A DNA stretch of 64,000 nt, from NCBI GenBank assembly GCA_042584585.1, contig JBHOSQ010000002.1, positions 12,806-76,805 on the forward strand. Reading direction: 5' to 3'. Both the position numbers and the translations under genes were made by a program. This DNA comes from an archaeon. GTDB taxonomy: Archaea; B1Sed10-29; WALL01. Positions within the stretch are counted from its first letter, which is position 1. Each line of letters starts with the position of its first letter. Below the pieces are notes generated by a model. The model searched no databases and had not been told where the DNA came from. It saw nothing but the letters and a program-made list of their open reading frames with translations. Shown here one piece after another: positions 20,436 to 44,394 of this stretch.

Positions 20436-21643
20436 GAACAAAAGGACAATTCTATATTTTGATTCTGGTGTTTATGATCTCGGTAGTCGTGGGGGTTGCT
20501 TACTTCACGACCGAGTCAAAACAACTGGAACAAGAAACGGACATCGAGCAGGAGCCAATGCTGCAGACGATTATGGACGGCTACGAGTCAGAGCTGAAGG
20601 CATCCATCGAAGGCGGGCTCTACAGCGGAAACCCCGCGTTCTACCAAGAGGTAGAGGCCAAGCTCACCACCCAAGCCGCCCAAAAAGGCTACGGGTTTAC
20701 TTCTGACTGCACTCGGACCCCAATCAATAGCTACAGCGAGCAAATCGACTGTGACATCGAGCTCTCGGTGGGCGAGAACGTTTTGACGACGAGCTTTTCC
20801 CACACCTATGCCGTGGAATTCGGGATAGAGCTGTACGCGGACGAGGACTACACCCACAAAACCACTTACTACGCGCCCGGCGACACGATTTATTACCGCG
20901 TGACGTCGCCCGCGCCCAGCGACACCAACGTGACCATCAACTACCCGGACGACCAGGAAAAAGAGAAGCAGGAAAAAAGCGGCACAGGCTTCGCGAACTT
21001 CGCTACGTTCGGAACCATTGACGTGGACGAGACCACGGGCGAGTGGGAAATATCGCTGGACAGCTCGGCCGACTCCATGAGCACAGCGTTTTACGTCCAG
21101 GAGTCCGTCGTCGACATCACCACGTACGACTCAAGCTGGATTCCCCAGGACACGTTCAACCGCGGCGAAGAAGTCAAGTACCGCATCGTCGTGTCGCCTT
21201 CCGCGAACGTTTACATGGACGTCACCGCCGGCGGGCAGGACAGGGACTACGACTGGTGGAGCGATGCCCCATCAACGCTGCACGAGTCCAGCTTTGTGGT
21301 GAGCTCGGTGGAGAGCTCGGGCACCGTTTTGACTTTGACGGCGATTGAGGACGGCTACTTCGGCGAGGCGTCGGTGAACATCACTGTTTTGTACGTGCCG
21401 TACGGCGCGTTCATTCCAGTGGACCTGGAGTACGAGCACGTTCCGTTTGACGCGTTCAAGACCTCGTGTGGGTACGAGGAGTGGTACGCCGGAACCACGA
21501 CTAACAACAGCGGCGTGCCGTTCGACTGCGTGCCGACGGGCGACGCGGTGGTGCGCGTTGCGAACGAAGTCGAAGTGATTAGTGTTCCACACGTTTACGC
21601 AGACAAACTCCATATTCTTAGCTCGAGGTGTGACGATTGCTGA
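20426..21643 (+). CDS. Large minor prepilin-like protein with Ig-like domains, ending in an apparent half domain
   Basis: TKG|QFYILILVFMISVVVGVAYF; two Ig-like repeats (Y.PGDTIYYRV, FNRGEEVKYRI); C-terminus FIPVDL...GVPF...ISVP...ADKLHILSS. Confidence 0.72.
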   Translation: MEIGTKGQFYILILVFMISVVVGVAYFTTESKQLEQETDIEQEPMLQTIMDGYESELKASIEGGLYSGNPAFYQEVEAKLTTQAAQKGYGFTSDCTRTPINSYSEQIDCDIELSVGENVLTTSFSHTYAVEFGIELYADEDYTHKTTYYAPGDTIYYRVTSPAPSDTNVTINYPDDQEKEKQEKSGTGFANFATFGTIDVDETTGEWEISLDSSADSMSTAFYVQESVVDITTYDSSWIPQDTFNRGEEVKYRIVVSPSANVYMDVTAGGQDRDYDWWSDAPSTLHESSFVVSSVESSGTVLTLTAIEDGYFGEASVNITVLYVPYGAFIPVDLEYEHVPFDAFKTSCGYEEWYAGTTTNNSGVPFDCVPTGDAVVRVANEVEVISVPHVYADKLHILSSRCDDC

Positions 21644-22020
21644 AAGTAATTAGTGTATTGTTATTGGCAGCCCTTTTGGTTGGCTGTACAAACACGGAGG
21701 AAGCCCCGGAGCCGACGGCAACGCTGGAGCCATTCGTGTCCCCCACGCCAGGGACATCAACAGCCACGGCAACACCAACAGCCACACCCGAGCCAACGCC
21801 AATTCCCATTCCAACTAAAACATTCACCACGCAGTACGAAGTCTGTGAAGACCTTACTGAAACATGGTACTGCCTCACCGACAACGGCCTTGTGACGTGC
21901 ACGCTCACGGGCATCAACGCGCCGAGCTACACGCCCAGCGAAATCACAGTTACGTGCTTCAACTTCGACTCACTCGAAGAAACAGAAGAATTCGTTATAC
22001 GTGTAGGTGATTCCCAATGA
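21637..22020 (+). CDS. Small lipoprotein with a Pro/Thr-rich linker and Cys-containing C-terminal domain
   Basis: Signal MLKVISVLLLAALLVG|C (lipobox); TATATPTATPEPTP linker; GAGGTG SD before a TTG start. Confidence 0.7.
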   Translation: MLKVISVLLLAALLVGCTNTEEAPEPTATLEPFVSPTPGTSTATATPTATPEPTPIPIPTKTFTTQYEVCEDLTETWYCLTDNGLVTCTLTGINAPSYTPSEITVTCFNFDSLEETEEFVIRVGDSQ

Positions 22021-25000
22021 AATGGCTCTTTGTTTTTGTTATAGCACTGCTATTGGTGACTGTGACAGTCGAGGCACTGGGCACGGAAATAACGCTCAAA
22101 ACCAGCTACGCCAGCGCCGACTCGCCCGGGGGCGGCCCAGGCGCGAAAAACGTGTGGCGGGACCGCGATGGATTCTACCACATTATTTTCCATGATGGCA
22201 CGAACGACAAGCTCTACTATACTTACAGCACTTCAACCGAGCCGACGAGCGCGGCCCACTTCATTACGCCGGTAATCATCTTTAATAGCGCGGAGAGGGG
22301 CTCGATGTGGCTCGACGTCTCGAGTGGCATCATCCACCTCGCTTATGCCGAAGTAGACGCGAGCCCGAGGCTAGTCTACGCAAAATGCGACACTGACGTC
22401 GGGTGCACTAGTGGCTGGACCTCGGTCGGCACAATTTACAACGGCCAGACCTATGGCTTGGCGAGCATCGTGTACCAGCAGTACACCGACATGGTAACGC
22501 ACTACATAACGCACTTCGTCTACGTAAAAGACACACTGCGGTACCGGGTTTACTACCGGGATTACGACACCGCTAGAATCTCGCCGTACTGGGGCACCGA
22601 GCAGATAGTCGACAACCTCCCGAGCGGCACCACGCAGCGCTACGTCCACCCCAGCATCGACAGGGACACCAGCGGAAGGATACACTTAGTCACCCGGACG
22701 TGGGTTGACGGCGGTGCACTCAGCACCAGAAAATGCTTGTACACCGCATCGACGGACGCCGGCCAGACCTGGAAAAACCTTGCCGGGTCAGTCGGGTACA
22801 ACGACCTGCTCAGCAGCAACTACGTAGAAGCCTGCTCCATAAATGTCCCATCCCCCGCCAAAAGCTCGAGCTACCAAGTGCCACACGTCGCGATTGAAGG
22901 GGCCAGCAGCCACACCCAGTGGCACACGAAAGGAAGCGCGCTGACCGGAGGCACGTGGAGCACCCCATGGAGCTACTACACCAGCTATGCGAACTGGGGG
23001 AACCTAGGGAGCGACATCAACGGCAACACGTTTTATAGTTATTCTAGACGGAACGGCGTCGTCGGCTATGTCTACGCCAGGCAGCGAAACAACGCGGGGG
23101 CCTGGCAGACCCAAGACACACTACACGCCAGCGGCAACAGCGCGCACCAAGTGATGGAGGCGCACGCGCCGCTCTGCAGCCGGGGCGACATCGGCGTGCT
23201 CTACGGAGCCACGGGAACCAGCACCCTTTACTTCCGCACGATAGACGGCGCGTACAGCGAATGCAACACCCCGCCCACGCTCAGCAGTGTCACGGTCTCA
23301 ACAGACCCAATCCAGGGTGGGGGCGAACAAACAGTGACTCCAAGCGGCCAAGGCGACGCGGACTCTGACCCGCTGAAGTTTGTATGCTGCATCGGAGAAG
23401 GAGCGTCATGCACGCCCACGACCGGGAACACCGTCTGTAATGAAGGGCAGACCACGTACTCATCCCCGTACTCGTCCATGACGTGCACGTACGACGCTAC
23501 TGCCGGGGCAACCCAAAGTGAAGCCGCGTACTGCCGCACGTACGACGGCACTGAATACCACATGGAAGTTGGTGGCGCAAACGACGCTTATGACGTTGAC
23601 TCAGACGCGCCAGTGACGACTGACAACGGGGTCGCCGACAACTGTTACGGTGGGGACTGGAGCTTAACTCTCTCACCGACCGACGCTGGTGCCGCAAGCG
23701 TTGACTGGACCAAGTACTGCGTCGACGATGTGTCCAACGACTGCACGCCAAGCACGACTGGGACTTCGGTGCCAACTGACTGTGGCGCCGGCAACGCGTG
23801 TGACGTCTACGTGCGCTACCAATCACAGGACACGGTCGGCAACCTTGAGAGCGTGAAGTCCAGTGGAAACATTAGCATCGACCGCGCGCCCCCGAACCCG
23901 TCAAGCATCACTGGCATAGTGCCAAGCGCGGGCCAGCTCGCCGTTACCGCGTCGCAGGTTACGGACGTTGGGTGCTGGGGCGACAACTGGTACTACTTTA
24001 CTTGTGCATCCGGCGCGTGCAACGACCGGACATGGACACTGAACGACTGGACCCACACCGACGTGGGGCTCGCCCCAGCAACGGAATTCTGTTACACCAT
24101 TACAGTGAGAGACGGCGCGACCAACACAGGCAGCGCGTCTTCACAAGTGTGTGGCATCACGCCCGGGAACCAGCCAACGAGCATGTCGGCGACTGCGTCC
24201 ATAGCCGCGCCGCTTAACTCGGAAAGAGGCAACGTTGACTTGTCGTGGAGCGCGAACAGCAACCCCGGCGGAACTATATACTCAATAGAGCGCGACCAGG
24301 CCTGGATTGCAAACACGACGAGCACGACGTATACTGACACGGCCGGCAGCGACAACACGGAGTACTGCTACCGCGTGCGCGCGGCGCACCCGAGTGGCTC
24401 ATACGGAAGCTACAGCACGGAAGAGTGCGCGATGACCGCTGACCGCACTTCCCCCGCGACGCCCAGTCTGACTGCGGCCGCGGACAACGTGCTGAACCAA
24501 GTAAACTTGAGTTGGGACCAGGGCGACGACAACTTGGTCGGCTACTGGCCGTTCGAGGAAGGCAGTGGCTCATCAACTGATGACTGGAGCCCGGCCGGCG
24601 GCGACGGCACGCTGCAGGGCCCGGACTGGATTAGTGGGCAATACGGGCGGGCGCTGGACTTCGTGCTCGCAAACACGGATTACGTTGACGTGCCTTCGGG
24701 GGCGTTGCTGGACCTAAGCGCCGGGACCAACAGCTTCACAATAGTCGGGTGGATAAATCCGGACCTGTCGCAAGACGTTGGGCCGATTATTTCCACGAGG
24801 GACGTGATAAACGGCGTGGTGACCAAGGGCTACGGATTCGAGACCAACATAAACACCGCGAACGGCATGAAGGTGAACAGCCTACGGCTGGTGCTCGGCA
24901 CTCCAGCGTGGAAGTGGAACGTGTGGGGCTCGGAAACAAACAGCCTCGTGCCGGGGTCGTGGCAGCACGTCGCGGTTGTGGTGACCGGCACTAATACGGC

Positions 25001-28000
25001 GTCGAAGACAGTGCAGTTCTACATCGACGGCGTCGAGTCCAATACATATTACTGGACAGCAAGCACAGAAACAGATGTATTGCTTTGGGGTGACAATCCG
25101 TTGTCGAACCGCATCGGCGGGTACTATCCCGCGACTTACCCACCGTATGGCGTCGGCTACTTCGACGGAAGCATTGACGAGTTAAGGGTTTATGCCGGCA
25201 AAGCGTTCACGCAAGAAGAAATATTCAACGACATGGAGTCAGGGCTAATCACGCACGGCGTGCACAGGGGCGCGACTTCCTGGGAGTACGGGCCGGCCGA
25301 CGGGCTAGCCGACAACTTCAGCGACGGAGACTACACAAATGACCCCACGTGGACCGTGCCCGTTGGCACCTGGGCCGTGAGCTCGGAAAAACTGACACAA
25401 TCATTCACGGGCGGCGGCTGGACAAAGATAACCGCCGGGAGCTCCAGTTGGGACGACTACGTGTTTTCTGTCAAAGTAAAGCCAACCACCATCACTGAGA
25501 CGTATCCAAACGTTGGTCTCATGTTGAGGGCGCAGAACTCTAACACGTACTACGGTATCTTCCACCACCAAGACGACAACACGTGGAGAGTTTATGACTA
25601 CCAAGATGCCGCGTACATATTCACGTCAAGCGCAATGAGCCTAGCCATGAACGAATGGCACGAGCTGAAGGCAAAAGTAGTGGGAGACAACCTCAAGTTC
25701 TATGTCGACGGAGTGCTGGTCGCGGACCTAACGGACAGCACAATGTCCACAGGGTACATCGGCCTGCTGACGCTGTACACCGCCGCAGAATTTGACGACA
25801 TCAAAGTAACACCGCTCATCGCTGACGACGAGTACGGGGACAGCGGCGCGGCAGATACCACTGCACCGAACAACGGCGCGACGCCCACGATTGACCAAAT
25901 CGCGATTAACAGCATGCGCGTGAACTGGGGCACGTCCGCGGACAACGGCAACACCTGGTACCACTACATCACGGCCTTCGACGACGAAGGCAACGAAGAC
26001 AACATTTTCCACGACGGGGGATGCGAGAAGGGCACGAACCCATGCTACTTCAAGGCTGGGAGCCTCGTCAGCAGCGGGTACACAGTGGACAGCTCTGTCG
26101 CGTACACTGGTGGATACTCTGTCCGGCAGGACACCTCCTCAAGCACCAAGTACTTCGGCTCGGACTTCATCATAGGCACTGACATTGAGCCGAACACAGA
26201 CTACATCGCAGAGTGCATGGTGAAGACTGCTTTGTCCGCGGGATACGCGAGGATATACCCAGAGCACCAGTTTACGACCCTGCACTTCAACAGTGTGAGC
26301 GGCACAACAGACTGGACGAGGATACACACGTCATTCACCTCCGGTGCCTCGGGCGACGTGCGCCTCCTCCGGTACACAATGGGGACCGCCACCGGCCAAA
26401 CGTGGTGGGACGACTGCACGCTCCACAAGCTCACTGAGACCACAGTTACTACCGGCGTTGGCTCGGACGACTATTATGTCTACAACACAGTCGGCAGCGG
26501 CGATGGTGGGACGAACAGTAGTTGGCAGGCGACCCCCTACACCGACACCAGTCTGTCGGCTAACACTCAATACTGTTACAAGGTCCGCGCAAGAGACAAT
26601 GCGGGAACGCCGAATGTCGGCGACTTCGGCTCGCAGACGTGCAAATGGACCCTCCCGGAAGACCCTGACGCCATCTGCACGTCCGGCCACGTGGCTGGCA
26701 CATGGAGCAGCAACAACGACCCCTCCTTCACCATCGACGGCGATGCAAACGCGTACCACTACGATTGGAACGGCGCGTCAAGCGACACGATTACCACCGG
26801 TGACTCGACAATCACAAGCCCACACACGTTCACGGACACCGCGGACGGCACTTGGTACCTGCACCTCATAAGCGCGAACCCAGACGGCGCAGTCAACCCC
26901 GGGGGCACGCAAACATTCTCGGTCGGCGGGTGGAAGATAGACGCCACTGCGCCGACATCAGTCAGCACAAGCGGGGGCACGGCGGGCTGGCAGAACACCG
27001 CCGCAAGCGCGGGCGTCTCGTGCAGCGACGCGACCAGCGGGTGCGACACAAGCACTTATAGAGTATACAACCGCGGGAGCGCGGGGGCGTGTGACACCAA
27101 CTACGCAACTTACACGCAAACAGTGCCGTACTCCGTCACGAGCCAGCAGTGGATATGCGCCGCGGCAAAAGACAACGCGGGCAACGTAAAGTACCAAGGC
27201 ACCGCAACCGAGTTCCAGGTCGACATGCTTGACCCCACCACGAGCGACAACGCGGACACGGTGACGTGCCACAACATCGACCAAACAGTGACGCTGACTC
27301 CAGGAGACACCGGCGGGTCAGGGCTCGCGGACACTGATTACTGCGTTGACACCGGGAACTCTTGCACCCCGACCACAAGTGGCACAAGCGCGAGCGTCAC
27401 GTGCGCCGACGGCGGCTATTGCCAGCAGTACGTGAGGTACTTCTCTACTGACACAGCGGGCAACACCGAGACAGTGAACTCCGTGGGCACCATAAAAATC
27501 GACAAGGCTCCGCCGAGCACGCCGAGCATCACCGTGATAACGCCCGGCAGCCAGCAAATTGCGCTCACGTCAAGCGTTGTGAGTGACGTTGGCTGTGAAG
27601 GCGGAGTACAGTACTACTTTGACTGCGTGTCCGGTGCTTGTAACGACCGGACCTGGGCGTCCGGGAACACTTACACCGACACTGGCTTGGCCGATAATAC
27701 TTACTACTGCTACAAAGTCAAGGCAAAAGACGCGAACAACAAAGAGACTGTGCTGTCCGCCCAACAATGCGCGTGGACCACCACTCCCGCGCCGACGCTG
27801 GACTCCGTGACTGCGGAGGAGGACGGCCTGCTAGTCGCACAGAAGGACAGCCTTCTTATTGACTGGACAGGCAACGGCGCCACTTCGTACGACCTCGAGA
27901 GGACGACAGACACCACGACCGTTTACTCAGGCGGCAACACGGACTACACAGACCTAAACCTCGACGACAACAGCGAGTACTGCTACCACGTGCGGGGCGT

Positions 28001-31000
28001 TGACGGCGGAGGCACGCCAGGCAGCTGGTCAAGCACAGTGTGCGGGATTAATGCCGACCGCACCGGGCCCACGAGCCCGGTCTACAACGCGACCGGAACA
28101 CAGGGCAATCCGGCGACTGACTGCGTGCACATTCTTGAAGAAAGGGGAGCGGTGGCGAGCGGCGTGTACTGGATTGACCCACTGCAGGACGGCGGGGGAT
28201 TCGAAGTATACTGTGACATGCTTACTGACGGCGGCGGCTGGACGCTCGTGGACAACGACGCGGTCAACGCAGAAGTATTCCTTTCCCGTGAGCCAATAGC
28301 GAACACCGACCCCGGAATAACAGCTGGCAAGTATTTGCAGGAGTGGGCGTGGGGCCCACAGCCAAGGCTCATGGTCAAGAGCTCAGTGTACAATGGAGAC
28401 TTGAACTGGGTTACGTTGATTCCGTTGACTGCGTTTGCCAACGAGTACCCGACCGTGACCACTCAGCCGACCAGCGAGCCAGACGCGTGGGCGGCGGACA
28501 AGCTGAACGGCAACATGTGGAACGACGGCGGCTCCTGGATTTACTCCGGGTCAGGAAGGTTTGGCTCGGTGTGGATTGGGAACGGCGGCGCGCCCACCGC
28601 AGCGTGCAACTACGCAAGCACGAAAGTGAGTGGGCTCGGCACGTACGCCAACGGTGACGTCTCGACGTGCTCTACTTGGGTGCGGCCGCGTGACCCACCA
28701 GTGCCCGCGAACAGTGTTTCGTTCGAGTGGACCCAGGGCGACTCGAACCTAGTGCTTTACATGCCGTTCGAGGAAGGCACTGGAGCGGCGACGGACGACT
28801 GGAGTTCCAGCGAAAACGACGGCACGAAGATTGGGACCTGGACAACAGGGAATACAGACACATACACTGGAGGCGCACTGAACTTTGGCGGCAGTAGCGA
28901 GTATGTAAATATTCCGTACGACGCGAGCCTTGCACCCGACCAGCTGACGGTCATGGCGTGGTTCAACGCGGACGCCTTTGTCAACAACCAGAGAATAGTC
29001 TCGAAGACAGAGGGTGGCGGATACCAGTTAAGCATTAACGAAGCGGCCTGCCCCGGAGAAGTATGCATGCTCGTCCATACTGGGAGCTATCACGTTGTCA
29101 GCTACGCACATTCAAACTTGAACACTGGCCAATGGCATCACATGACAGGAACATACGACGGCAGTACCGCGAAGCTGTACATAGACGGCGTTGAAGTAGA
29201 CTCCAACTCAAACCCCAGCGGCAACATTGTGTACAACGCGAACAACCCCTTGTGCGTCGGGGCTGAAGCCACTTCAAACAGCTGCGGCGGCGGGTACCAA
29301 TTCCTTGGAGAAGTCGACGAAGTCCGCGTGTACGACACGGCACTCACGCAGCGCGAGATAATCGATGCGATGCAGTCGGGTGTAATAGGCCACGGAGTGC
29401 TGCGGGCCGACAACAATGCAGGAGGCGCCACGTACACGCCTGTCGGCGGGCTGATTAGCGCCACCAGCGGCACACTCGCGCCAGAAGACTATGTTCAAGA
29501 CTTCTGGCTGGAGTTCGACTCCATGGAAGACGTGAGCGGCGGCGAGGCGTGGGAAGTGCAGTTCAAGGACGGTGGCGCCTTTGAGTACATTGTCGACAGG
29601 ACATCGCTCACCAATGTGCGGCTGCAGAACACTGCTTGCGGCGGCACGCAGCAATCATTCACCGCGCCAATCGGCCAAGGAGTGTGGGAAAACATAGACA
29701 TAATCAAGCACGGCGCCGACATTATGATTTATCAGGACAACGTATTCGTCGGCGAGACGACCCTCCAGTCCTGCAACGACCCATTCGACACAATCACAAT
29801 CAGCGGCGAAGGAATGAAGAACATCAGGCTCGTGCCGTTCAACTACGACAACGAGATTACCGACACGGTTGCAAAGGACGAGACCGGGCCCAACACGCCA
29901 AGCGCGCCGACTGTCACGGCGGTGTCAACCAGCAGCCTGAGTGTTGATTGGACTGAGGTCACGGACAACGGCGACGACTGGTTCCACGTTGTTACTGCAT
30001 GGGACGACAACGGGAACGACGACAACATACTCAACAACTGGCCCAGCATCAAGGAGTACTACGGGCTTGCGGGATATCCCTTCTGGAGCGACGCCACGCT
30101 CCGCAGCAGCGGGCGCGTTGAGCCCGGTGAAAGGATAATGATACAGTTCTACGAAAAGCTCCACCCCCTCTCGGCCGCGGACAGTGACTGGGTGAGCTGC
30201 TACATATATGAAACCGGGCCATGGGCAAACTCGTGCAGCGACTCAAGCGCCGCCACAACATGGGACTGGGGACAGTGCAACCGCATCGTGGGCACTGGCG
30301 GCACGGACTACGTGGTCGGCTGCTACCACGGGCCCAACAACGAGCACACCGCAGACGGCGCATATGTGCGGGACCTACGGCTCCGCAAAGTCCACGAGGA
30401 AACCGTCATCACAAACACAAAAGACTACTACGTCGCCGGGACGAGCCTGAACGCGTGGTACACGAGCGGCGCGCAGGCCGCGGGCAGCCTCTCGAGCAAC
30501 ACGCAGTACTGTTACACTGTCAAGGCGCGGGACAACGGGCTCAACGAGGGAACGGCGAGCGGCTCCGGGTGCAAGTACACCTTGCCGGTCGACCCGACGT
30601 TCTCGGTGAGCCACACCGCGAGCCAATGGAGCGCGGACGACACCGTGGAATTCACGGTCAGCAACTCGGACGGCGCTACTTACTACTACGTTTGGGACCA
30701 GAACCCGGGGACAAACCCAACCGGTGGGACCACGTGGGACGGGACACTGCTCACCAAGACCGCGACTGCGGACGGCAACAACTGGTACCTCCACGTTGTG
30801 GCGGAAAACCCGGACAACGCCCAAAACCCGAATGGCGCAGAGCACCTCGGGCCGTACTTCATTGACACGACCGGGCCGTCGAGTGTTAGTACAACTGGCG
30901 CCCCGGCGGGATGGCAGAACACTGACGCCAGTGCGAGTGTTTCGTGCAGCGACGCGAGCAGCTTGTGCGACTCGGCGACTTACAGGGTTTACAACCGCGG

Positions 31001-31523: not shown

Positions 31524-31527
31524 TACA

Positions 31528-35000: not shown

Positions 35001-38000
35001 CTGGGTCAGGGACAAAAACGGCAACTCGGCGACCGCCACCTCAACCGTCGACATAAACGACGGCAAGTGGCACCACGTGGCAGGCGTGAGGACTTCTTCA
35101 ACAATATACATTTACGTTGATGGAGTTGAGACAGGCACTGCCTCCGCAAGCAGCATCGGGGAGATCTGCCCAACAAACCCGTTTGTAATCGGCAGGCACA
35201 GCAGCTCAGCCCAGCGCTTCAACGGAAAAATTGATGAGGCACGCGTGTGGCGCAGGGCGTTGACAGCGTCGGAGCTGCAGTCGCGCGCTTGGTACATGCC
35301 GTTCAGGTCTGCGATGCTTGAAGCGAACTATGATGCAATCAAGGGCGCGGCCGACGACTTCAGTGACGGGGATTACACGAGCAATCCTGTGTGGACGCCG
35401 GGCATCGGTGGGAGCACATGGGGCGTCGAGAATGGGCAAGTGTTTACACAAAGCACGACCGCCTCTGAAAGCTCGCTCACGCTCACAGAAAACATCGCGG
35501 CGGGCGAGCCGTTCGTGATGACCGTGGACAAGGTCACTGACTGGGCTGAAACCGGAATCCATGGCGGAGGACATTACATACGGCAATACACCGCAGGCAA
35601 TTACCAAGTCTCGGGAGTGACCATACCCCACGCCTATGCCCAGCACTGGCGGCTAGAGTTCGACGGCACGACGTACAGGTTCTACTTGAACGACGAATTA
35701 ATCCGCGAGTGGGCAGGCAGCAGTAACGGAATATTCGACCTTTATGACGACAGGAACGCTGCGAGTGGCAAAGTGTACTACGACAACGTCAAGGTTTATT
35801 CGCTGCAGGGCAACAGCTACGAGGACACTGACGCAAGCGACACCGAAGCGCCCGACACGCCAGGCGCGCCGACGCTCACCGCGTACAGCACTTCCATACT
35901 AGGAGTCGCGTGGACAGGTGTGAGTGACACCGGCAACGACTGGTTCCACTTTGTCAAGGCGTTTGACACAACTGGGAACGAAGACAATTACCACCCGAGC
36001 AACGGGCTGGTCAGCTACTGGCCGCTCGGCGACGGGAGCACGGGCAGCGCAGACGGCGCGGTGACGCTGAACCGCGAGAGCACGGACCACGGAACTGTGT
36101 ACGGCGCGACGTGGGTCGATGGCGAGTACGGTAGTGCATTGGACTTCGACGGCGCCGACGACTACGTCACCATCGCCAACACGCACGCATTCGCGAACGA
36201 CGACTTTAGTTATACCTTGTGGTTCAAGGCGGACACGCCGCAGGACAACTGGCAGGGCATTATGCTCCAGAACAACTACCACACCGGCGCGCCGAACACG
36301 TTCTTCGTAGCCGCAATCAGGGGCACGAACGACCCGCCGAACCAGGACAAGGTGCAGGTGTACGACAGGTACAACGGCATCAACGTCGCCGACTACTCGG
36401 ACGGGCTTTACACCGACGGCGAGTGGCACCACTTGGCGGTCACTTATGACCGTGACGGCATGAGGCGGTTCTACATAGACGGCGCGTTCCAAAAAGAGAC
36501 AGACATAAGCCCGCACATCGCCATCGCGTTCCAGACCGCGCCGCTGCAATTGGGGCGGGACCTCACTGGCGCACAAGGCGGAACCACCGGTGGAGTATAC
36601 GCGTACGATGGCTCGCTCGACGAGATATTGATGTACAGCCGCGTCTTAACACCTGAAGAAGTCGCGGGCATCTACCACCGCGGCTTGATACAGCAAAGCA
36701 CGGTCACGACCGGGATTAATGACTACTACGTGAACGGCACCTCACTGGACCAGTGGTACACCACATCACCGCAGAACGCGACCAGCCTCGGTACGAACAC
36801 GCGGCACTGCTACAACATAACGGCGAGGGACAACGCGCTTAACGTCGGCAACGTGGGCGGCACGCAGTGCAACTACACGCTCGCGGTCAAGCCAAGCATC
36901 CTGGCTGGGTCCATGGTCTGCGACGGCAACACCAGCAGCGGGTACAAGTGTGACGTTCCCTTCAGTATGGGCGACAACCCGCTTTATACAGAGTATTATA
37001 TAACCGCGACGAGCACCGACGGCGGAACAGGATTCACGGACTCTGGGTGGATTACGGTAAGGGAGACCTATGTTGATACGGGCCTCGACCCGCACAAGAC
37101 GTACTGCTACAAAATCAACGCGAGAAACGGCGACGGAACACTCACCGGCCAGTACACCCAGGTGTGCAAGACCGTAGCCAACAACGTGCCAACGCTGGGG
37201 AGCGCGACCGGCAACACGGATCCAATCAAGGGTACGGCCCAGCAGACGCTTACAATCGGCGGGGTTGACGACCTGGACCAGGAATTGCTATACATCCACT
37301 GCTGTACGGACGAGGCCAACACGTGCACGCCAACTAACATCAACGACGTGTGCAGCAGCAACGATGCCCATCCATACTCGTCGCTGTCTTGCTCGTATGC
37401 CACTGGTGGCGTGACGACTCGGACCGAATACGTGCGGTGCGTCACAAACGACACTCATGACGTTTCCACGCCGGTGACGAGCGACTCTTACCTCGTTGAC
37501 TCGGTTGCGCCGACGACGACGGACAACCACAGCGCTGGCAGCTGCAACGCCGTCGACCAAGTCGTGAGCCTTTCTGCTGGCGACGATGTTGGAGGAGTCG
37601 GCGTGGACTCGACGCTGTACTGCGTGGACACGGCAAACACTTGCAACCCTGTGACAAGCTATTCGGCTCCGGTGACAGTGACTTGCTCGGCAGGCACCGC
37701 GTGCACCAAGTACTTGAGGTACAACTCAAGTGACGTGGTGGACAACCAGGAAACGGTCAACAGCGCTGCCGTCCAAATCGACAAGTCCAATCCAGACGAC
37801 GGCGTGATAGCGAACATTGTGTCGCTCGGCACGGACAGCCTTAGGGTCACGGCCACCGCGGGCACAGACGACGGGTGCGGAAACTCGAGCCTGCAGTACT
37901 ACTTCACCTGCCAATCCGGCGCGTGCAACGATGGCACGTGGCAAAGCGGATTGGTTTATGACGACAGTGGGCTGTCGCCGGCGACTGAGTATTGTTACAG

Positions 38001-41000
38001 TGTCAAGGTCCGGGACGACGCCGGCAACGAAGGCGCGGACTCCGCGGACACGTGTGCGTACACCGACGCGAGCGTGCCGACGATGGACTCCATCACGGCA
38101 GAGGGCACGCCGCTTAACTCTGGAATCGGGCGAGTGGAAGTCAACTGGAGTGGCAACCCAGCCGGAACTGACTACGAAGTGCAGCGCGACAAGTTCTTGA
38201 CGAGGTACAGCGGAACAAACACGGCTTATACTGACACTGGACTGGACAACACATGGTACTGCTACCGCGTGCGGGCCCAGCCGTCGGGAGGCTCGTGGAG
38301 CGGCTGGAGCAACGAATTGTGCACGGTTACTTTGGACAGGACTGGGCCGTCGCCGCCGAACTTGACTGCGACGCCGGACAACGTGAACAACCGCGTTGAC
38401 TTGGACTGGACGTGGGCGAACGACGAAATCGCGCCGGACATTGACAGCGGAATGGTCGGGCACTGGAGGTTCGAGGAGGGCAGCGGCATAGCGACATATG
38501 ACTCATCAGGAAGCAACATCGATGGGACTATAGTCGGCACCCCACAATGGGTTACAGGCCTAGCAGGCAACGCAGTCCAGCTGGACAACAGCTACATCAA
38601 TCTCGGGGACGCTCCAACACTAGACATAGCTACTGAACTCACTTTATCCATGTGGGTGAAGCCAGATGCGTTTGTTGTGGACAAGTTCCTGTTCGGCGGC
38701 TCATGGAGTTACCACGGCTATTCCCTGCGCTTCGATGATGCCGATAACTCGCAGCTGGAATGGTATGTTGGTGACGGAAGCGCGTATCATTTCTTCACCT
38801 ACCCCCACGGCATGGTAACAGGAAAGTGGTACAATATCGTATGCACTTATGACGGAACCGAAGGCAAGGTGTTCGTGAACGGGAACCTGATTGGCTCAAG
38901 AATCGAGCCGTTCATACCGGACGGCGCGTACATACAGGACCACGTGATTGGCACGGACGGAAGCAAGGCAAAACACTTCACTGGAACCATGGACGACGTT
39001 CGCGTGTACAACCGCGCGCTCACCGACGAAGAGGTGAAGTGGCTGACTCTCGTCGGCCAATGGCACTTCGATGAAGGCACTGGCACGGACGCGTTCGACG
39101 CGACTGGGTTCGGAAACGACGGATCGTTTGTTGGTGACCCCGCGTGGACTGATGGCGTGCACAACACGGCGCTTGAGTTCGACGGAAGCAACTACGTCAG
39201 CGCTGGAAGCAGCGAAGCCTTGAACCCGAGACAGCAGGGGTGGACCGCAGAAATGATGGTCAAGTCAACCCAGAAGAGCGGGGGCAACGGCGGCTACATA
39301 CGTGTCATGGGAAGGTACGAAGCAGGAGACTACTGGCTGCTCAGGACCCACACGAGCAGTGGTGACTACCCTGTGTTCCAGATAACTGATGGGAGTAACT
39401 CTGCCGGTGTCGCGGGCACTACAACCGTCACCGACGGCGTGTGGCACCACCTAGCGTTTGTGTATGACTACGACGACTCAAGGACATACATCTACATAGA
39501 CGGAGTTGAAGACGCGGCCAACGATTGGACTGGAACCTCAATGGGGGACATCAACCCAAGCACTGCCCTCCAAATTGGTCAATCACAAGCAGCCAATGAA
39601 GGATACAGCGGCAAAATCGACGAAGTCCGCGTGTGGAGAAGGGCATTGACCGCGGCAGAGATACAGGCACGGGCGAAGTACGGGCTGTATCGGGCTGCGG
39701 CGCTTGACGGGGCATACGAGCCAGTTGACGGGCTGTGGGATGACTTCGATGGCGCGGCTGTGGACACGGCTACGTGGACCGAACTAACTACCAACGACGC
39801 ATCCATAACAGTGTCCAACAGCGAAGTAACACTCGACGACAATACGGGGATAGCCCACCTAACCACACAAGAAAACTTTGGGGTGTATGGAACACTTGAG
39901 TTCGACCTCAAGGCAAACACTCCCGAGCCGGGGTCCACTTGGTACAGAATAGCCAAAGTCCCAAACACGTTCTATGTCGACGCCGGCAACATTTTCTCTA
40001 TATGGATGACCGGTGGAGTTCAGCTTGGCATAGTAAACGACTACGAATTCCATAACTGGAAGTTCACTTTGGACGGGACGCACATACGGGTTGTCTACGA
40101 CGGCAACGTGATATACACGGCGGACCAGGCCAGCAGCCTGGGGACCATCCGCTTGGGCAACGACTTCAGTACCGAACACGGGAACATGGTGTTCAAAAAC
40201 GTTAAGTTCACGCCGCTGATTAGCACGAACACATACCAAGACACTGGCGCGAGCGACACGGCAGGGCCGAACACTCCTGCAGCGCCGACTGTATTGCCCA
40301 TCAACAGCACCGCAATGCAGGCCTCGTGGAGTGGAGTGGGAGACGTCGGCACCGGGTGGTGGCACTACGTCAAGGCGTTTGACTCGGAAGGCAACGAAGA
40401 CAATTATCACGACAGCAGCGAGCTCATTGGCTACTGGCCGTTCAGTGAAGGCAGCACGGGAAGCGCGGACGGAGTGACGACGTATGACTCCGTTGGCACC
40501 AACGAGGGCACGGTAAGCGGTGCGGCGTGGGCAACAGGCGCTTACGGCACAGCACTTGATTTCACTGGCGGAAACACAGACAAAGTAGCACTGGCCACTC
40601 CCCTCACCCAAACAGTGTGGAGCACGACCTTCTGGGCGCGGCAAGACGCCGGGGCAGACATCAAGGGAATGATAATGGGCGACACCAGCAACACAATCAG
40701 CTTCATATGGTTCTGGGAAGGCAGCTACTTCAGGTTCAGGTCCAACAGTGGCACTCTCGACTGGCCAGAGCTGACCGACTTCACGACGATGGCCCATTAT
40801 GCACTCGTGAGCGACGGCGTTAGTGTAACGCTGTACAAGAACGGCGTGCAAGTCGGCAGCCCCCAGACGCCGGCATCAACAGAATTCACGGTAAATGCGA
40901 TTGGACAGGGGTACAACAACATTGACTATTCGTTTGACGGCGTGATTGACGAAGTGATGGTATACGACCGCGTGCTCACCGACGATGAAGTGGTAAGCAA

Positions 41001-44000
41001 CTACAAGCGTGGCGCGGCCAAGTTCTCGACAGTTGTTACTGGCCTGCAGGACTATTACGTCAACGAGACCACTGGCAACGGCACCGGCGGGGCGGCGGCA
41101 GTGGCGGCGTACAACGACACCAGCCTGACGCCGAACGGATACGCGTGCTACGAAGTGCGGGCAAGGGACAACGCCAACAACTGGGGATTGTTCTCGAGCC
41201 CGACGTGCAACTACACGCTCGCGGTGACACCCGGGGCAAGCGTCACGTGCAGCCGAAACCCAGACCACTGCAACGTCACGATTTCACCGAACGGCAACGC
41301 GGCGGGCACAGAATACAACGTCAACAACACCCAGGGCGGAACCGACAGCGGGTGGATAACCGCGTCGTACTACGACGACACCAGCGTAAGCGGCCAACAA
41401 ATGTGCTACAAGGTCAGGGCCCGCAACGCCAACGGAATCGAGACCAACGAGTCCACCGAAGTGTGCGACAACATGCCCAACACCGCGCCGACCACGCCAG
41501 TGCTTGTGTCACCGACCAACGGCGCGATTGTCTCGACGCTGACGCCGACGCTTGATTGGCAGGACAGCAGTGACAACGAAAACGACAGCATTAACTACGA
41601 AGTGTTGCTGTGGGGCGACACGCCACCAAGCTTCACGATAACCAACTTCAACAACGGCGCGAAGACCAACACCACGACCGACGCGGACAGGTACGGCCAG
41701 GGCAGTGGGCTGGAGCTGGACATGCCTTACGCGGCCAAGGACGCGAACCTCGTGTCGTACTGGAGGATGGAAGGCGACGCGGTGGACGAGGCCGGGCCAA
41801 ACCACGGCACAATCACTGAAGCCACGCCAGACGCCGGAAAGTTCGGCAGTGGCCTGCACTTCGACGGGTCAAACGACAAGGTGACCATACAGAATGACCC
41901 CTCGCTGAACCCGGCGCAGATAACAGTCGCGAGCTGGTTCAACCCGGACGTTGGAGGCATAGGAGAGCAAAAAACATTGCTGATGAAGGCCTTCACGTCA
42001 CACACCACGCCGCACTACCAGTACACGCTTACAATCATAGACAAGGTGGACTACGAAAAGAAGCTTGCGTTTTACGCGGCGGTTGGAGGGGTGCTTTACG
42101 ACACGGGAGCGGGGTCACTCAACTACGACTACGGCGAATGGCACCTCGCAACCGGCACGTACGACGGCGGAACCATGCGCCTGTACCTGGATGACCAAGA
42201 AGTGGCATTCAGCGATGCGCCCAGTGGACCACTGAACTCGTTCGACACAGAACTAGCGTTCGCAGACTACCCCAACCTCGGCGACACCTCGAGTTACCAA
42301 TACGGTGGGGTGCTTGACGAGATGAAGATTTACGACCGCCCGTTGACAGGGCCGGAAGTGACAGAGCTGTTCAACAACGGAAACCAGTACAAGGCATACG
42401 GCTACTGGGAAAGCGAGACCATTGTCCCGCAGGGCGTGCCCAACAAGCTGAGCATAACCCACTCCGGGTTGAGCACGAGCTCTTACATAGACAAGGTCGA
42501 GTGGCTGGTAAGCGGGCAGGTCAAGGCAACGTACGGCACCGACGTGACAAGTGGGTCGCTCACAGAGATAACCACGCCGACAAGCGGGAGCTTCGACGAC
42601 GTAGACAGCGACTACAAGATACGGATTTACCTTGCCGGCGACGGGACCGCCACGCCAACGCTCACGCAGCTAACCGGCGAATACACCAGCCTGCACAAGA
42701 CCGGGCTGGGAAGCAGCCAATACATAATCCAGGCAAGTGAACAGTTGGTGGGCGGGAACTACAGCTGGAAAGTCAAGGCACACGACAGCTGGGCGTCGTC
42801 TGGCTGGAGCAGCACGTGGACGTTCCAGGTCCAGACCAACGACCCCGTGCTCAGCAGCGTGCAAGTCACGCCGGCGCACCCAACAGTAGTGGACGGCCTC
42901 GGGTGCTCGTGGGTGATTACAGACGTTGACTTCAACGACACTTTGACCGCGGACGTCACCTGGAAAAAGAACGGCGCGCCAATCGCCACGTGGGACATCA
43001 CGGGCATGGCCTGCCAGAACGGGCAGGTGTGCACCGCCACCAGCGCACCCACGTCCAGCGACATCGCGGCAGGCGAAGTGTGGACGTGTGTGGTGACGGC
43101 AAAGGACGCGGCACAGCTCACAGACGAAAAGAACGACACGGCAACAATACTCAAGGCCCTTACGGTGTGGTACACGGACGGGACATACGACACGTTCGCG
43201 TACACCCCCGAGGCATGGGACGTGTTCAGCGCAAACATGGAGAGCACTTTCCAGGGCTCGTGCGGCGGGTTCGCGCCGAACTGGTGGAACACCAACTGGC
43301 CGCTCAGGATACCCGTGGACGTCACAGAAAACACTGATGGCATGAGCCAATACCAAGTCAAGGTCGAGCTGGACGCTGGGTTCAACTACGGCGCCACCGA
43401 GACAGGTGGGAGCGACATACGGTTCGCCGACGACGCCAAGGTGCCACTGCCGTACTGGATAGAGACGTGGAACCCGGGCGGGACGAGCGTGATTTGGGTC
43501 AAAGCCGACTTGGCTAGCGGGCCCAACCCATTGTGGATGTACTACGGCAACGCTGGAGAGCCGAGTGAGAGTGACGGGACCGCGGTGTTCATTTCGTTCG
43601 ACGACGGCGAGGCCGGAAACTTGGTGCTCAACCCCGCGGGAGCGGGAAGCATCGAGCGCGTTGGCGGAAGGATCTACGGGGAATCAGTGGCGGCCGCGGA
43701 CGGCTGGCTAATCGGGACAATCCTGTCCGGCGAGCCGTTCATCGCCAAGGCGAAGCTTGAGAGCGGCGCGACTGGCAACGGCGGCATCGAGGCACTGGCC
43801 TTAAGCAACTGGGCGGCAGTGCCTGTTCCGATGATTAACACTGCGTTCAACCCCAACGCACGGTTCGGCATCAAGCGCTACCTGGACGACCACACCTTGT
43901 ACGTGCACTACATGGACAACGCGGGCAGCGGGTGGTACTACGACGCGGTGAACAACGTGTGGGCCGACAGCCCGACTAACTGGAAGGTTGCTGGGCCGGG

Positions 44001-44394
44001 CGAGTACACGCTGATGGTCTGGGACGACGGAATCAACTACAACGCGGACATTATCGAGGAAGGCGCCGGAAGCGTGTTCACTGTCCCGCCGTCGATACCG
44101 AAGTCACAGGTCAAGGACTTCCAGGACGGGATTGCCATCGTGGCGGGCGAGCCGTACACCAGCCACTATTACGGCCAGCAGTACGTCGACGACTGGAGGA
44201 TTCGGAAGCACGTGGACACAGACCCGAGCGTTGTCCCGGGCGGCGAAGAAAGCGGCGGAAGTGGCCCGGGGCCGGGCAGCAAGTACGTGTTCTACTCGAT
44301 GAAGGACATTGACGAGACCAAGATAGTCGACGAGGTTTGGTTCGCGACAAAGGACAAGTGGCAGGTCAACGCCATAACGGTCGAGAGGGCATGA
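32089..44394 (+). CDS. Giant secreted surface protein, 4101 aa (FN3/Ig repeats, about 7 LamG domains, DUF2341-like domain near the C-terminus)
   Basis: Sec signal MKYAALFALLLMVSTAFG; seven (L/M/I)V(G/S)(H/Q/Y)W-type starts ending in (I/L/M)D(D/E)..(V/I/M)(Y/W).R.LT; WW.TNWPLRIP..V...SDIRF...LPYWIE.W....IWVK...MYYGN (DUF2341-like, from 43282); no C-terminal TM. Confidence 0.88.
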   Translation: MKYAALFALLLMVSTAFGLLIVDWSPPDGTITLYDTWNQDVSYGRGCNSPICDNYPPGVDGQVTVNFTNVTDAYEGQAVAVAGLENCWITDCELLDKTGCPACPYVSCEAYSPDNAFFNYGDPVDGSSVDWTTIEGTGDQYDTHLAHELWTEGPGTDWSPSWPTLLPQPNEGVRTIKAICADKAGNIAIQMQDDIYGDFVDPYATISYSGGYQSSTSISITQTASDQGRSPPPDPITHDTQRDRAVMADGVLGAWEGWSTIDTSGTNFNWDGPDCYGVKLRYRSHDVADRYSDWEDPSITVYIDTNTPGAVGSLTSTSHPLGTTAYANQTATFTWSDPQPCSGTQYYATAVTQSSSHSWTGTEPTSAGTSNVTTGLAEGTWYFHIRSRNNAGTWGTADSFMINVDLGAPTPNPATVASVVVDSDTQVTVTATTATDAFAPIYYRANETTGNSGGTNFTWQTGTSFVDGGLAISTQYCYIVQYKDKWDNEGAWTTTPVCDYSNAAVPGAPTVTLLPESSPLNSGLTMANIVIDENGNPATVLYNIKDVATGLHVQADGTLGASAAWMSYVNWGGSSGIDVTLEDDFVYSFAVKANGGGGDFSAYGPAITVTALDRTGPSPVDLTATADIANNRVNLTWPWASDEIAPDIDSGLVGHWELEDNTLDSSGNGHDGTNPLGISWVDGIQGQAGHFVNGRTATDITTNYLPLTVSFWVKEDANTWESSAAIGKRDGSSGWMFYRNPTWGDGNLGLLTYYVNTDPITTSYINYVYGLNDGNWHHIAFTIENGVTTTYKDGVLNERYVMPNFDYWLNNSQGISLGSEKAGSASWNFDGYLDDMRVYDRLLTEDEIKALTLVGQWHFDEGTGTDAFDASGFGNDGTITGATWADGVHGSALDFDGAGDYIDAGTGNGFKMEDGAFTFEAMVKSDGGIEASPVIMQRMYNGDCGGSSNSDAMRLGTTHTAGSGNPEYPLFWVRDKNGNSATATSTVDINDGKWHHVAGVRTSSTIYIYVDGVETGTASASSIGEICPTNPFVIGRHSSSAQRFNGKIDEARVWRRALTASELQSRAWYMPFRSAMLEANYDAIKGAADDFSDGDYTSNPVWTPGIGGSTWGVENGQVFTQSTTASESSLTLTENIAAGEPFVMTVDKVTDWAETGIHGGGHYIRQYTAGNYQVSGVTIPHAYAQHWRLEFDGTTYRFYLNDELIREWAGSSNGIFDLYDDRNAASGKVYYDNVKVYSLQGNSYEDTDASDTEAPDTPGAPTLTAYSTSILGVAWTGVSDTGNDWFHFVKAFDTTGNEDNYHPSNGLVSYWPLGDGSTGSADGAVTLNRESTDHGTVYGATWVDGEYGSALDFDGADDYVTIANTHAFANDDFSYTLWFKADTPQDNWQGIMLQNNYHTGAPNTFFVAAIRGTNDPPNQDKVQVYDRYNGINVADYSDGLYTDGEWHHLAVTYDRDGMRRFYIDGAFQKETDISPHIAIAFQTAPLQLGRDLTGAQGGTTGGVYAYDGSLDEILMYSRVLTPEEVAGIYHRGLIQQSTVTTGINDYYVNGTSLDQWYTTSPQNATSLGTNTRHCYNITARDNALNVGNVGGTQCNYTLAVKPSILAGSMVCDGNTSSGYKCDVPFSMGDNPLYTEYYITATSTDGGTGFTDSGWITVRETYVDTGLDPHKTYCYKINARNGDGTLTGQYTQVCKTVANNVPTLGSATGNTDPIKGTAQQTLTIGGVDDLDQELLYIHCCTDEANTCTPTNINDVCSSNDAHPYSSLSCSYATGGVTTRTEYVRCVTNDTHDVSTPVTSDSYLVDSVAPTTTDNHSAGSCNAVDQVVSLSAGDDVGGVGVDSTLYCVDTANTCNPVTSYSAPVTVTCSAGTACTKYLRYNSSDVVDNQETVNSAAVQIDKSNPDDGVIANIVSLGTDSLRVTATAGTDDGCGNSSLQYYFTCQSGACNDGTWQSGLVYDDSGLSPATEYCYSVKVRDDAGNEGADSADTCAYTDASVPTMDSITAEGTPLNSGIGRVEVNWSGNPAGTDYEVQRDKFLTRYSGTNTAYTDTGLDNTWYCYRVRAQPSGGSWSGWSNELCTVTLDRTGPSPPNLTATPDNVNNRVDLDWTWANDEIAPDIDSGMVGHWRFEEGSGIATYDSSGSNIDGTIVGTPQWVTGLAGNAVQLDNSYINLGDAPTLDIATELTLSMWVKPDAFVVDKFLFGGSWSYHGYSLRFDDADNSQLEWYVGDGSAYHFFTYPHGMVTGKWYNIVCTYDGTEGKVFVNGNLIGSRIEPFIPDGAYIQDHVIGTDGSKAKHFTGTMDDVRVYNRALTDEEVKWLTLVGQWHFDEGTGTDAFDATGFGNDGSFVGDPAWTDGVHNTALEFDGSNYVSAGSSEALNPRQQGWTAEMMVKSTQKSGGNGGYIRVMGRYEAGDYWLLRTHTSSGDYPVFQITDGSNSAGVAGTTTVTDGVWHHLAFVYDYDDSRTYIYIDGVEDAANDWTGTSMGDINPSTALQIGQSQAANEGYSGKIDEVRVWRRALTAAEIQARAKYGLYRAAALDGAYEPVDGLWDDFDGAAVDTATWTELTTNDASITVSNSEVTLDDNTGIAHLTTQENFGVYGTLEFDLKANTPEPGSTWYRIAKVPNTFYVDAGNIFSIWMTGGVQLGIVNDYEFHNWKFTLDGTHIRVVYDGNVIYTADQASSLGTIRLGNDFSTEHGNMVFKNVKFTPLISTNTYQDTGASDTAGPNTPAAPTVLPINSTAMQASWSGVGDVGTGWWHYVKAFDSEGNEDNYHDSSELIGYWPFSEGSTGSADGVTTYDSVGTNEGTVSGAAWATGAYGTALDFTGGNTDKVALATPLTQTVWSTTFWARQDAGADIKGMIMGDTSNTISFIWFWEGSYFRFRSNSGTLDWPELTDFTTMAHYALVSDGVSVTLYKNGVQVGSPQTPASTEFTVNAIGQGYNNIDYSFDGVIDEVMVYDRVLTDDEVVSNYKRGAAKFSTVVTGLQDYYVNETTGNGTGGAAAVAAYNDTSLTPNGYACYEVRARDNANNWGLFSSPTCNYTLAVTPGASVTCSRNPDHCNVTISPNGNAAGTEYNVNNTQGGTDSGWITASYYDDTSVSGQQMCYKVRARNANGIETNESTEVCDNMPNTAPTTPVLVSPTNGAIVSTLTPTLDWQDSSDNENDSINYEVLLWGDTPPSFTITNFNNGAKTNTTTDADRYGQGSGLELDMPYAAKDANLVSYWRMEGDAVDEAGPNHGTITEATPDAGKFGSGLHFDGSNDKVTIQNDPSLNPAQITVASWFNPDVGGIGEQKTLLMKAFTSHTTPHYQYTLTIIDKVDYEKKLAFYAAVGGVLYDTGAGSLNYDYGEWHLATGTYDGGTMRLYLDDQEVAFSDAPSGPLNSFDTELAFADYPNLGDTSSYQYGGVLDEMKIYDRPLTGPEVTELFNNGNQYKAYGYWESETIVPQGVPNKLSITHSGLSTSSYIDKVEWLVSGQVKATYGTDVTSGSLTEITTPTSGSFDDVDSDYKIRIYLAGDGTATPTLTQLTGEYTSLHKTGLGSSQYIIQASEQLVGGNYSWKVKAHDSWASSGWSSTWTFQVQTNDPVLSSVQVTPAHPTVVDGLGCSWVITDVDFNDTLTADVTWKKNGAPIATWDITGMACQNGQVCTATSAPTSSDIAAGEVWTCVVTAKDAAQLTDEKNDTATILKALTVWYTDGTYDTFAYTPEAWDVFSANMESTFQGSCGGFAPNWWNTNWPLRIPVDVTENTDGMSQYQVKVELDAGFNYGATETGGSDIRFADDAKVPLPYWIETWNPGGTSVIWVKADLASGPNPLWMYYGNAGEPSESDGTAVFISFDDGEAGNLVLNPAGAGSIERVGGRIYGESVAAADGWLIGTILSGEPFIAKAKLESGATGNGGIEALALSNWAAVPVPMINTAFNPNARFGIKRYLDDHTLYVHYMDNAGSGWYYDAVNNVWADSPTNWKVAGPGEYTLMVWDDGINYNADIIEEGAGSVFTVPPSIPKSQVKDFQDGIAIVAGEPYTSHYYGQQYVDDWRIRKHVDTDPSVVPGGEESGGSGPGPGSKYVFYSMKDIDETKIVDEVWFATKDKWQVNAITVERA
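34657..34715 (+). repeat. 59-bp direct repeat, copy 1 (copy 2 at 39061-39119; 58/59 identical)
   Basis: TGGCACTTCGATGAAGGCACTGGCACGGACGCGTTCGACGCGA(G/C)TGGGTTCGGAAACGA at the junction between tandem LamG domains. Confidence 0.92.

Follow-up and report, generated by a model that had tools for sequence, protein, structure and literature searches.

How could a secreted protein of more than 4000 residues, with no anchor of its own, come to be displayed on an archaeal cell? The question is raised by a 64,000-nucleotide stretch of contig JBHOSQ010000002.1 (the whole stretch analysed is called the window below), in which a type IV pilus cluster encodes both a large minor pilin, pilin405, and, further downstream, a 4101-residue adhesin-like protein, giant4101. 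The source genome (1.02 Mb, 84% complete) is, to judge from its sequence, that of a DPANN archaeon (Iainarchaeota/Diapherotrites); the named proteins closest to its own carry the annotation Candidatus Diapherotrites archaeon. The initial annotation of the window had proposed that one protein domain is split between the ends of these two proteins, and the quoted ends are indeed present, in open reading frames 20426-21643 and 32089-44394. The pilin terminates in ...FIPVDL...GVPFDCVPTGDAVVRVANEVEVISVPHVYADKLHILSSRCDDC. In the giant, ALTVWYTDGTYDTFAYTPEAWD starts at residue 3690 (position 43156), and the protein ends with KYVFYSMKDIDETKIVDEVWFATKDKWQVNAITVERA.

The answer considered most seriously here is that the end of the adhesin is an adaptor for the pilus. 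The cluster is, by gene content and order, an archaeal type IV pilus locus of the Epd/system-1-like kind, conserved order-wide. It would supply three consecutive minor pilins with class III signals: p159, p179, and pilin405. The protein encoded just before the DUF192 gene, here giant4101, would be a Sec-exported, anchorless tip adhesin, whose body could be exchanged freely (LamG, FN3-like, and DUF2341 domains). Its last ~87 residues would form a conserved adaptor module, with a DUF2341 unit inserted in a loop of that module in this genome. The module would then bind the C-terminal region of pilin405, fixing the adhesin on the pilus tip. Sequence comparison shows the anatomy of the two proteins, the conservation of the locus, the insertion, and the joint occurrence of tail and module. 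What we infer is the physical contact; its geometry, which may be a shared sandwich or sheet augmentation; and a disulfide that may link two conserved lone cysteines. The adaptor role is plausible, and it fits a variable body, a constant C-terminal end, and a single module per genome. Whether pilin tail and module dock on each other is finely balanced: we hold the proposition about equally likely to be right or wrong.

The two protein ends

In the relatives, a module of about 87 residues forms the extreme C-terminus of every protein whose gene immediately precedes DUF192. Its consensus comprises V.YTDG..W..-..W...F..SC, a short loop, and Y.Y....d..KivD.v.F.d....QitAiT.EK; the invariant columns include those of the last strand, Q.TA.T. 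The loop joining the two parts is only ~10-20 residues long in seven genomes (G023, G020, G030, G027, G021, G025, and G024; G-numbers denote genomes compared within the phylum, G000 being the window's own). The module of an eighth, G019, has a longer, Cys-rich loop. In giant4101 the two parts stand 336 residues apart, and the intervening stretch is evidently an insertion, because a profile of insert-free modules (A6) matches the giant twice, at residues 3690-3726 and at 4063-4100. This profile was built from 5 of the 10 module-bearing genomes, with the insert-bearing G000 and G026, along with G025, G024, and G019, left out. Insert-free orthologues and the double match together bear out the earlier view of the giant's end as one domain broken by a DUF2341-like insert.

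The insert contains a clear DUF2341 domain (PF10102; residues 3774-3843; E 1.7e-20; 73.7 bits vs a gathering cut-off of 23.4). One protein search found 4944 proteins at E<=1e-3, matched mostly in the insert part. DUF2341 was also matched in the control genomes of Methanocaldococcus jannaschii and Methanosarcina acetivorans. Within the same genus, G026 also bears an insert and G025 is insert-free; a database relative, P0031, carries a different and longer insert in its module. Because G000/G026 and P0031 carry different inserts at this place, the loop that starts at the conserved Cys is, on this comparison, an insertion hot spot. The Cys itself is kept at the start of the variable loop in all modules seen.

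Distant orthologues have nothing in common apart from the module and, in some pairs, the Ig domain ahead of it. BLAST matched 30 of 36 orthologue pairs, and the six pairs without a match all involve insert-bearing proteins. The simplest arrangement is found in G023, where a 799-residue LamG protein with the module is encoded directly after the pilin. By the same comparisons giant4101 is the resident orthologue, enlarged by internal duplication and by the DUF2341 insertion. The internal duplication covers ~1200 residues: residues 500-1722 and 1991-3152 are 35% identical over 1265 residues (E 4e-178). Another orthologue, the module-bearing protein of G020 (P0174), has 105 cysteines in its 1106 residues.

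Several properties of giant4101 are those of PilC/PilY1-type adhesins: it has a Sec signal, MKYAALFALLLMVSTAFG..., no anchor (no C-terminal hydrophobic stretch was seen by eye), and a gene that follows minor pilin genes. Its Laminin_G_3 matches (PF13385) lie above the gathering cut-off, with E 1.9e-149 over seven stretches. No PilY1/PilC Pfam family is among the ten families matched by the whole protein, nor in its last 514 residues, and these matches give no β-propeller.

Pilin405 is built of five parts: a signal and helix (residues 1-30); a head (31-134) containing Cys95 and Cys109; two Ig-like repeats, Ig1 (135-221) and Ig2 (222-321); and the C-terminal region, or tail (322-405). The N-terminus, MEIGTKGQ/FYILILVF... 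(MEIGTKGQ/FYILILVFMISVVVGVAYF), has the features of a class III signal as judged by eye, namely a short charged N-terminus, a [KR]-G/A cleavage site, and a hydrophobic helix of ~20 residues; Q8 is invariant in 15/15 pilins. No match at E<=0.1 was found to TIGR02537 or the NCBIfam pilin N-terminal models, and no Pfam pilin family or T2SSK family was matched; a weak MG2 match (E 0.005) lies below the cut-off. None of the 15 pilins has an acidic residue near +5 (QFYIL...), which is the mark of the apical GspK/PilK pilins; the rule is bacterial, and we infer its archaeal meaning.

Across 10 genomes of the order the long pilins are equal in length and close with the same native C-terminus. The end itself, ...HILSSRCDSC and variants, recurs in each of the 15 long pilins aligned, even at identities as low as 24-29%. 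(The pilin alignment A5 comprises 10 of these 15; short pilins entered no alignment.) Among the four extracellular regions of the pilin, the tail has the most columns conserved at 90% or above (8/79). An odd number of cysteines is found in 14/15 pilins, with the unpaired Cys lying in the CGY motif of the tail. The pilin of G024 has lost this Cys, and has a new one in a longer tail.

Tail and module were compared with each other and with the remaining domains. The two Ig-like repeats are homologous (hhalign, 96.6%), and the tail was rejected as a third repeat (0.1-0.2%). Tail and module were likewise rejected as copies of each other (1.4%); only a short F..SCG likeness joins them. The module gave 3.3% or less against the pilin head, Ig1, Ig2, and tail. 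Likeness of the tail to DUF2341, suggested by a 16-bit match in G028, was rejected too: against a 424-row DUF2341 profile the tail scored 1.1% and the module 7.5%.

Presence and loss across the order

The survey comprised 31 genomes of the phylum, 13 in the order and 18 outside it. Within the order, 12 of the 13 genomes have the pilin and 10 have the module, with exactly one module per genome; outside the order neither was found (0/18 for each). The one genome of the order that lacks both is 61% complete. Among the 12 genomes with the pilin, tail and module occur together: 10 have both, two have neither, and none is discordant.

The surrounding gene order is equally steady. Upstream, p198-p131-ATPase-TadC-TadC-p159-p179 is kept in 6/6 relatives. 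Downstream, the series of pilin, module-bearing secreted protein, DUF192, Fer4-ATPase, and two TadC genes is found in 6/9 relatives (G026, G023, G020, G030, G027, and G021). In the remaining three (G025, G024, and G019) the contig ends, and the module sits on a different contig. The place of DUF192, after the adhesin or straight after a short pilin, is kept in 8/8 relatives in which that side is visible.

The two genomes with a pilin and neither piece deserve a closer description. In G022 (family f1) the pilin has 227 residues and stops at the boundary between Ig1 and Ig2; in G028 (family f4) it stops two residues past Ig2. In both, DUF192 follows the short pilin directly, with no adhesin gene between. 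No module was found in either genome at E<=1, nor was a pilin tail found elsewhere, apart from a chance-level 16-bit match inside the DUF2341 of another protein in G028. These are two co-losses in different families, other members of which keep both pieces. Both deletions end cleanly at domain boundaries, with the DUF192 start preserved.

Together, these comparisons define a small, testable pair, an 84-residue pilin tail and an 87-residue adhesin tail, whose gains and losses coincide throughout an archaeal order. If the two bind, the display of anchorless proteins of more than 400 kDa would be explained. If they do not, the module is still the only piece that stays the same in a rapidly changing family of adhesins, and as such a good starting point for identifying its true partner.

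Alternative readings

The alternative that survives best, although we consider it rather unlikely, is that tail and module do not touch. The module would then be an adaptor for the head sheet of a minor pilin, in the manner of PilY1 and PilK, for the S-layer or cell surface, or for the host; the tail would have a function of its own, such as binding or stabilizing. A number of points weigh in this direction, and hence against docking on the tail. The bacterial precedent, in the available text of PMC12918778, touches the head sheet of the pilin. By analogy with the bacterial strand, which completes that sheet, p159, p179, or the head of pilin405 would be just as good a candidate for the partner of the module. 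Because the adhesin gene lies next to the 3' end of the pilin gene, a single deletion can take both; only two such events are seen, and the co-losses are therefore weaker evidence than losses of unlinked genes would be. The tail barely exceeds the other pilin regions in conservation (mean top-residue frequency 0.52 vs 0.45-0.49), and an 84-residue, β-rich tail is big enough to be a complete domain alone. The cysteines are equivocal as well: the window's own pilin405 has six, an even number, and counts in the module proteins are mostly even (50, 24, 6, 18, 18, 18, and 18). These even counts call for no intermolecular disulfide and leave a cross-chain one as a possibility only.

Absence of contact has its own difficulties, however. 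The module occurs once per genome and in this locus only, whereas several secreted proteins should carry a general anchor. One of these is giant3168, a secreted product of this locus; it lacks the module, which is therefore not a general surface anchor. Moreover, both deletions cut the tail at domain boundaries along with the adhesin, and none of the 12 pilin-bearing genomes (0/12) keeps one piece alone.

Next comes the strict form of the split-domain proposal, which goes beyond docking: tail (322-405) and module (3690-3726 and 4063-4101) would be the two halves of one sandwich of glycoside-hydrolase type, neither folding alone, encoded in two genes and assembled in trans outside the cell around a shared core, perhaps with a disulfide between pilin Cys348 and giant Cys3725. 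Its sizes fit, in that ~84 plus 87 residues make a sandwich of ~170; the pilin end and the module start look like strand boundaries; and each side has one lone conserved Cys. The pattern of co-occurrence and co-loss, and the distinctness of the tail from the Ig repeats, fit as well. If true, it would amount to a plug and socket, with which DPANN archaea could swap huge adhesin bodies, and insert domains in the plug, leaving the pilus untouched. Nevertheless, we judge it improbable. By eye, each piece has ~6-7 predicted strands, as many as a small independent domain needs, and the module tolerates a 336-residue insert and variable loops, as an autonomous fold would.

Database searches also speak against a shared sandwich. 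The initial annotation had likened the two pieces to the opening and closing halves of a single β-sandwich module of glycoside hydrolases and secreted proteins; neither piece matched anything in Pfam, NCBIfam, or the Protein Data Bank (PDB) that would sustain this. The window's pieces gave no Pfam family at E<=10; ten tail and five module sequences gave only scattered single-member chance matches. No NCBIfam model was matched, and profile searches of PDB returned nothing below E 0.049, all at chance level. In a structure atlas the tail matched no feature, the best TM being 0.42, to unrelated families. No single chain carrying both tail and module was found among 5.8 billion protein clusters searched by profile (searches that covered proteins of 166-2000 residues sharing words with the query, such that a distant single-chain form could escape), nor among 178 collected proteins. 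The tail profile matched only pilins of 405-425 residues (8/8), and the module profile only non-pilin secreted proteins (7/7).

An evolutionary version of the split held that a 21.5-kb cassette of four genes had interrupted an ancestral pilin gene and taken over its 3' end, the last 37 residues of the giant being the old pilin terminus. There is a truly lineage-specific block here, lipo127-giant3168-p186 (21637-32088), found in only G000, G026, and G024 of the 10 loci examined. It lies between genes, however, outside the pilin gene, and the pilin has its own native end in all 15 long pilins aligned. In the seven insert-free genomes the two parts of the module are contiguous on a non-pilin secreted protein, and no pilin among the profile matches bears a module. 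Moreover, in each of the six relatives whose long-pilin locus is contiguous, a module gene already stands between the pilin and DUF192. An intact gene for pilin plus module upstream of DUF192, which the cassette would lead one to look for, was not found in the relatives; where a short pilin adjoins DUF192, both pieces are missing. An origin by cassette insertion is therefore very improbable.

Errors of assembly at the junctions (21640 and 43150), for which the repetitive, internally duplicated giants might be blamed, are hardly credible: the junction of pilin and lipoprotein gene recurs in G026 and G024, which were assembled separately; the layout of part 1, DUF2341, and part 2 recurs in a 1094-residue protein of G026; and P0031 has a different insert. 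Reads from one DNA run (word share 0.08), compared over 42000-45000, gave two 151-nucleotide contigs within the insert, at 43306-43578, and a 32-nucleotide piece at 44920-44951, and span neither junction.

The surrounding locus and its known counterparts

The whole cluster occupies 14460-47979 on the forward strand, with 17 genes in one ordered series conserved across the order (Table 1). The machinery of a type IV pilus is represented by two PF00437 ATPases and four PF00482 platform genes, all above the cut-off and beside pilin genes.

Table 1. Features of the pilus cluster and of its two conserved protein ends, with positions in the window. A slash marks the cleavage site of a class III signal.
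Feature	Position	Strand	Match or distinguishing feature
p198, candidate (major) pilin, class III signal MKG/VSPAVSYVLLL	14460..15056	+	TIGR02537 archaellin/pilin N-terminal, weak
p131, small conserved protein	15107..15502	+	no Pfam/NCBIfam match
Secretion ATPase 1, T2SSE/VirB11 type	15513..17477	+	PF00437 E 6.3e-33
Two platform genes, TadC/T2SSF (17474-18355 and 18360-19571)	17474..19571	+	PF00482 E 8.4e-15 and 2e-18
p159, small minor pilin, SKG/SIGIEF	19555..20034	+	acidic residue at +5
p179, small minor pilin, likely start MKKG/FMRILE at 20031 (open reading frame open from 19896)	20031..20435	+	
pilin405, large minor pilin, 405 residues	20426..21643	+	class-III-type N-terminus
Pilin tail, residues 322-405, ~84 residues	21389..21640	+	CGY..WY, VPF, and P388 motifs; lone conserved Cys348
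lipo127, small, lipoprotein-like; LLVGC lipobox by eye	21637..22020	+	first gene of lineage-specific insertion
giant3168, Sec-type secreted, LamG/FN3-like, without module	22017..31523	+	Laminin_G_3 E 1.8e-44, 3 stretches
p186, small, N-terminal membrane anchor, Cys-rich	31528..32088	+	
giant4101, Sec-type secreted, adhesin-like, 4101 residues, no anchor	32089..44394	+	7 Laminin_G_3 stretches, FN3-like domains
Ig-like domain ahead of module, 4 Cys, residues ~3590-3689	42856..43155	+	
Module part 1, residues 3690-3726, V.YTDG...W...F..SC	43156..43266	+	profile A6 positions 2-38, E 3e-6
Insert in module Cys loop, 336 residues: DUF2341 (43408-43617) and following β-rich domain	43267..44274	+	PF10102
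Module part 2, residues 4063-4101, Y.Y....d..KivD.v.F.....Q.tAiTvE	44275..44391	+	profile A6 positions 42-82, E 6e-4
DUF192 protein	44391..44696	+	PF02643 E 1.7e-17, 63.8 bits vs cut-off 27
Secretion ATPase 2, N-terminal two-[4Fe-4S] ferredoxin domain	44758..46407	+	PF00437 E 4.6e-38, Fer4 E 1.7e-11
Two further platform genes, TadC/T2SSF (46385-47125 and 47122-47979)	46385..47979	+	PF00482

Among the small pilins, p159 has Glu or Asp at +5 in the window and in 6/6 orthologues, and p179 has G/F.R.LE, with Glu at +6, in the same set. The G/FMRILE of p179, after its predicted cleavage site, is much like the bacterial G/FTLIE. The candidate major pilin, p198, has no acidic residue near +5; it is kept at the same place in 6/6 relatives examined, and its match to TIGR02537 (E 0.001, 18.5 bits) falls under the cut-off of 20. 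Orthologues of p131 begin ~20 residues earlier, with a pilin-like MLKGQ....

Other genes of the locus have peculiarities of their own. The orthologue of ATPase 1 in G026 (L035, G026:C3, 4341-7628, reverse strand) has 1095 residues, compared with 654 here; its first 505 residues align, and ~440 extra residues lie inside or after them, perhaps as an intein. The ATG of DUF192 overlaps the TGA of giant4101 (ATGA at 44391-44394), and the DUF192 protein has no signal peptide, though encoded in a pilus locus. Orthologues of ATPase 2 with the same start (CxxCxxC...) come after DUF192 in the relatives; a redox-sensing pilus ATPase would be unusual.

Within the lineage-specific block, lipo127 and p186 show no BLAST similarity to each other (E 0.38). 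A small membrane protein like p186 follows each large protein in G026, an arrangement that suggests pairs of a giant and its anchor. Residues 2025-2080 of giant3168 weakly match two mostly eukaryotic families, the C-terminal domains of fibrinogen (E 4.3e-7) and of fibrillar collagen (E 4.6e-5). Beyond the cluster, a 1552-residue open reading frame on the reverse strand (50607-55265) matched no Pfam family at E<=0.01.

Archaeal loci of this general kind have been described. Makarova, Koonin, and Albers (2016) proposed that large DUF2341 proteins in archaeal type IV pilus loci are tip adhesins, by analogy with PilY, and linked adhesins of MshQ and PilY type with DUF2341 and LamG domains (PMC4858521, from its available text). 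System-1/Epd loci with two platform genes are reported also from some DPANN, in which ordered loci are rare (PLoS Genet 2026, PMC13705601, likewise). The present cluster resembles these loci in having several minor pilins with class III signals and large secreted DUF2341 proteins. It differs from the DPANN examples of PMC13705601 in being ordered and conserved, and in including a ferredoxin-ATPase and DUF192. In the text available from these two sources no attachment mechanism is given, and "strand complementation" occurs nowhere in that of PMC13705601. No archaeal module that docks an adhesin to a pilin was found in the literature searched, which did not extend to the supplements of PMC13705601 and PMC12918778.

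Bacteria offer the closest parallel. According to the text available, PilK-type minor pilins have their sheet completed by the extreme C-terminus of PilC/PilY1, and modelling gives that of MshQ the same role (Ellison et al. 2026, preprint, PMC12918778; Yount et al. 2026, PMC13711793). Such adhesins have a conserved end and a variable body, which can exceed 3000 residues; PilK-type pilins lack the Glu at +5, and GspI and GspJ keep an acidic residue, unlike the apical GspK and PilK (PMC12918778). Docking in trans had been put forward as a coupling not known to be described. The joint occurrence of tail and module lends the docking itself indirect support; the coupling has a precedent in PilC/PilY1 and MshQ.

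The archaeal locus follows the bacterial plan in several respects: two small pilin genes and a large one are followed by the gene for a large, Sec-exported, anchorless adhesin; the adhesin has a variable N-terminal body and a conserved C-terminal end; and the largest and last-encoded minor pilin, like PilK, lacks an acidic residue near +5. The differences are equally clear. The archaeal adhesin has no β-propeller, and its conserved end is an 87-residue module rather than a tail of ~10 residues. The proposed socket would be an extra C-terminal region of the pilin, rather than its head sheet, and the contact is proposed here from sequence comparison. Finally, the organism is an archaeon, with neither outer membrane nor secretin.

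A complementing strand can also be supplied in cis, as in GspK of the type II secretion system and CpaL/TadG of Tad pili; in CpaL, an insert of ~470 residues separates the terminal strand from the pilin-like domain (PMC12918778, in its available text). One sheet can thus be completed in cis or in trans, and the 336-residue insert in the module recalls that of CpaL. Unlike GspK and CpaL, the archaeal pair was found in no fused form.

In the donor-strand complementation of chaperone-usher pili and archaeal threads, an incomplete β-sandwich receives its missing strand from a second chain, and identical or similar subunits are thereby joined into a fibre. The pairing proposed here would instead join unlike proteins, with several strands contributed by each side. 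If real, the attachment of this adhesin would be an archaeal, domain-sized variant of bacterial docking. Should binding be confirmed, the strand complementation of PilC and PilY1 would extend to the archaea, enlarged from a strand to a domain.

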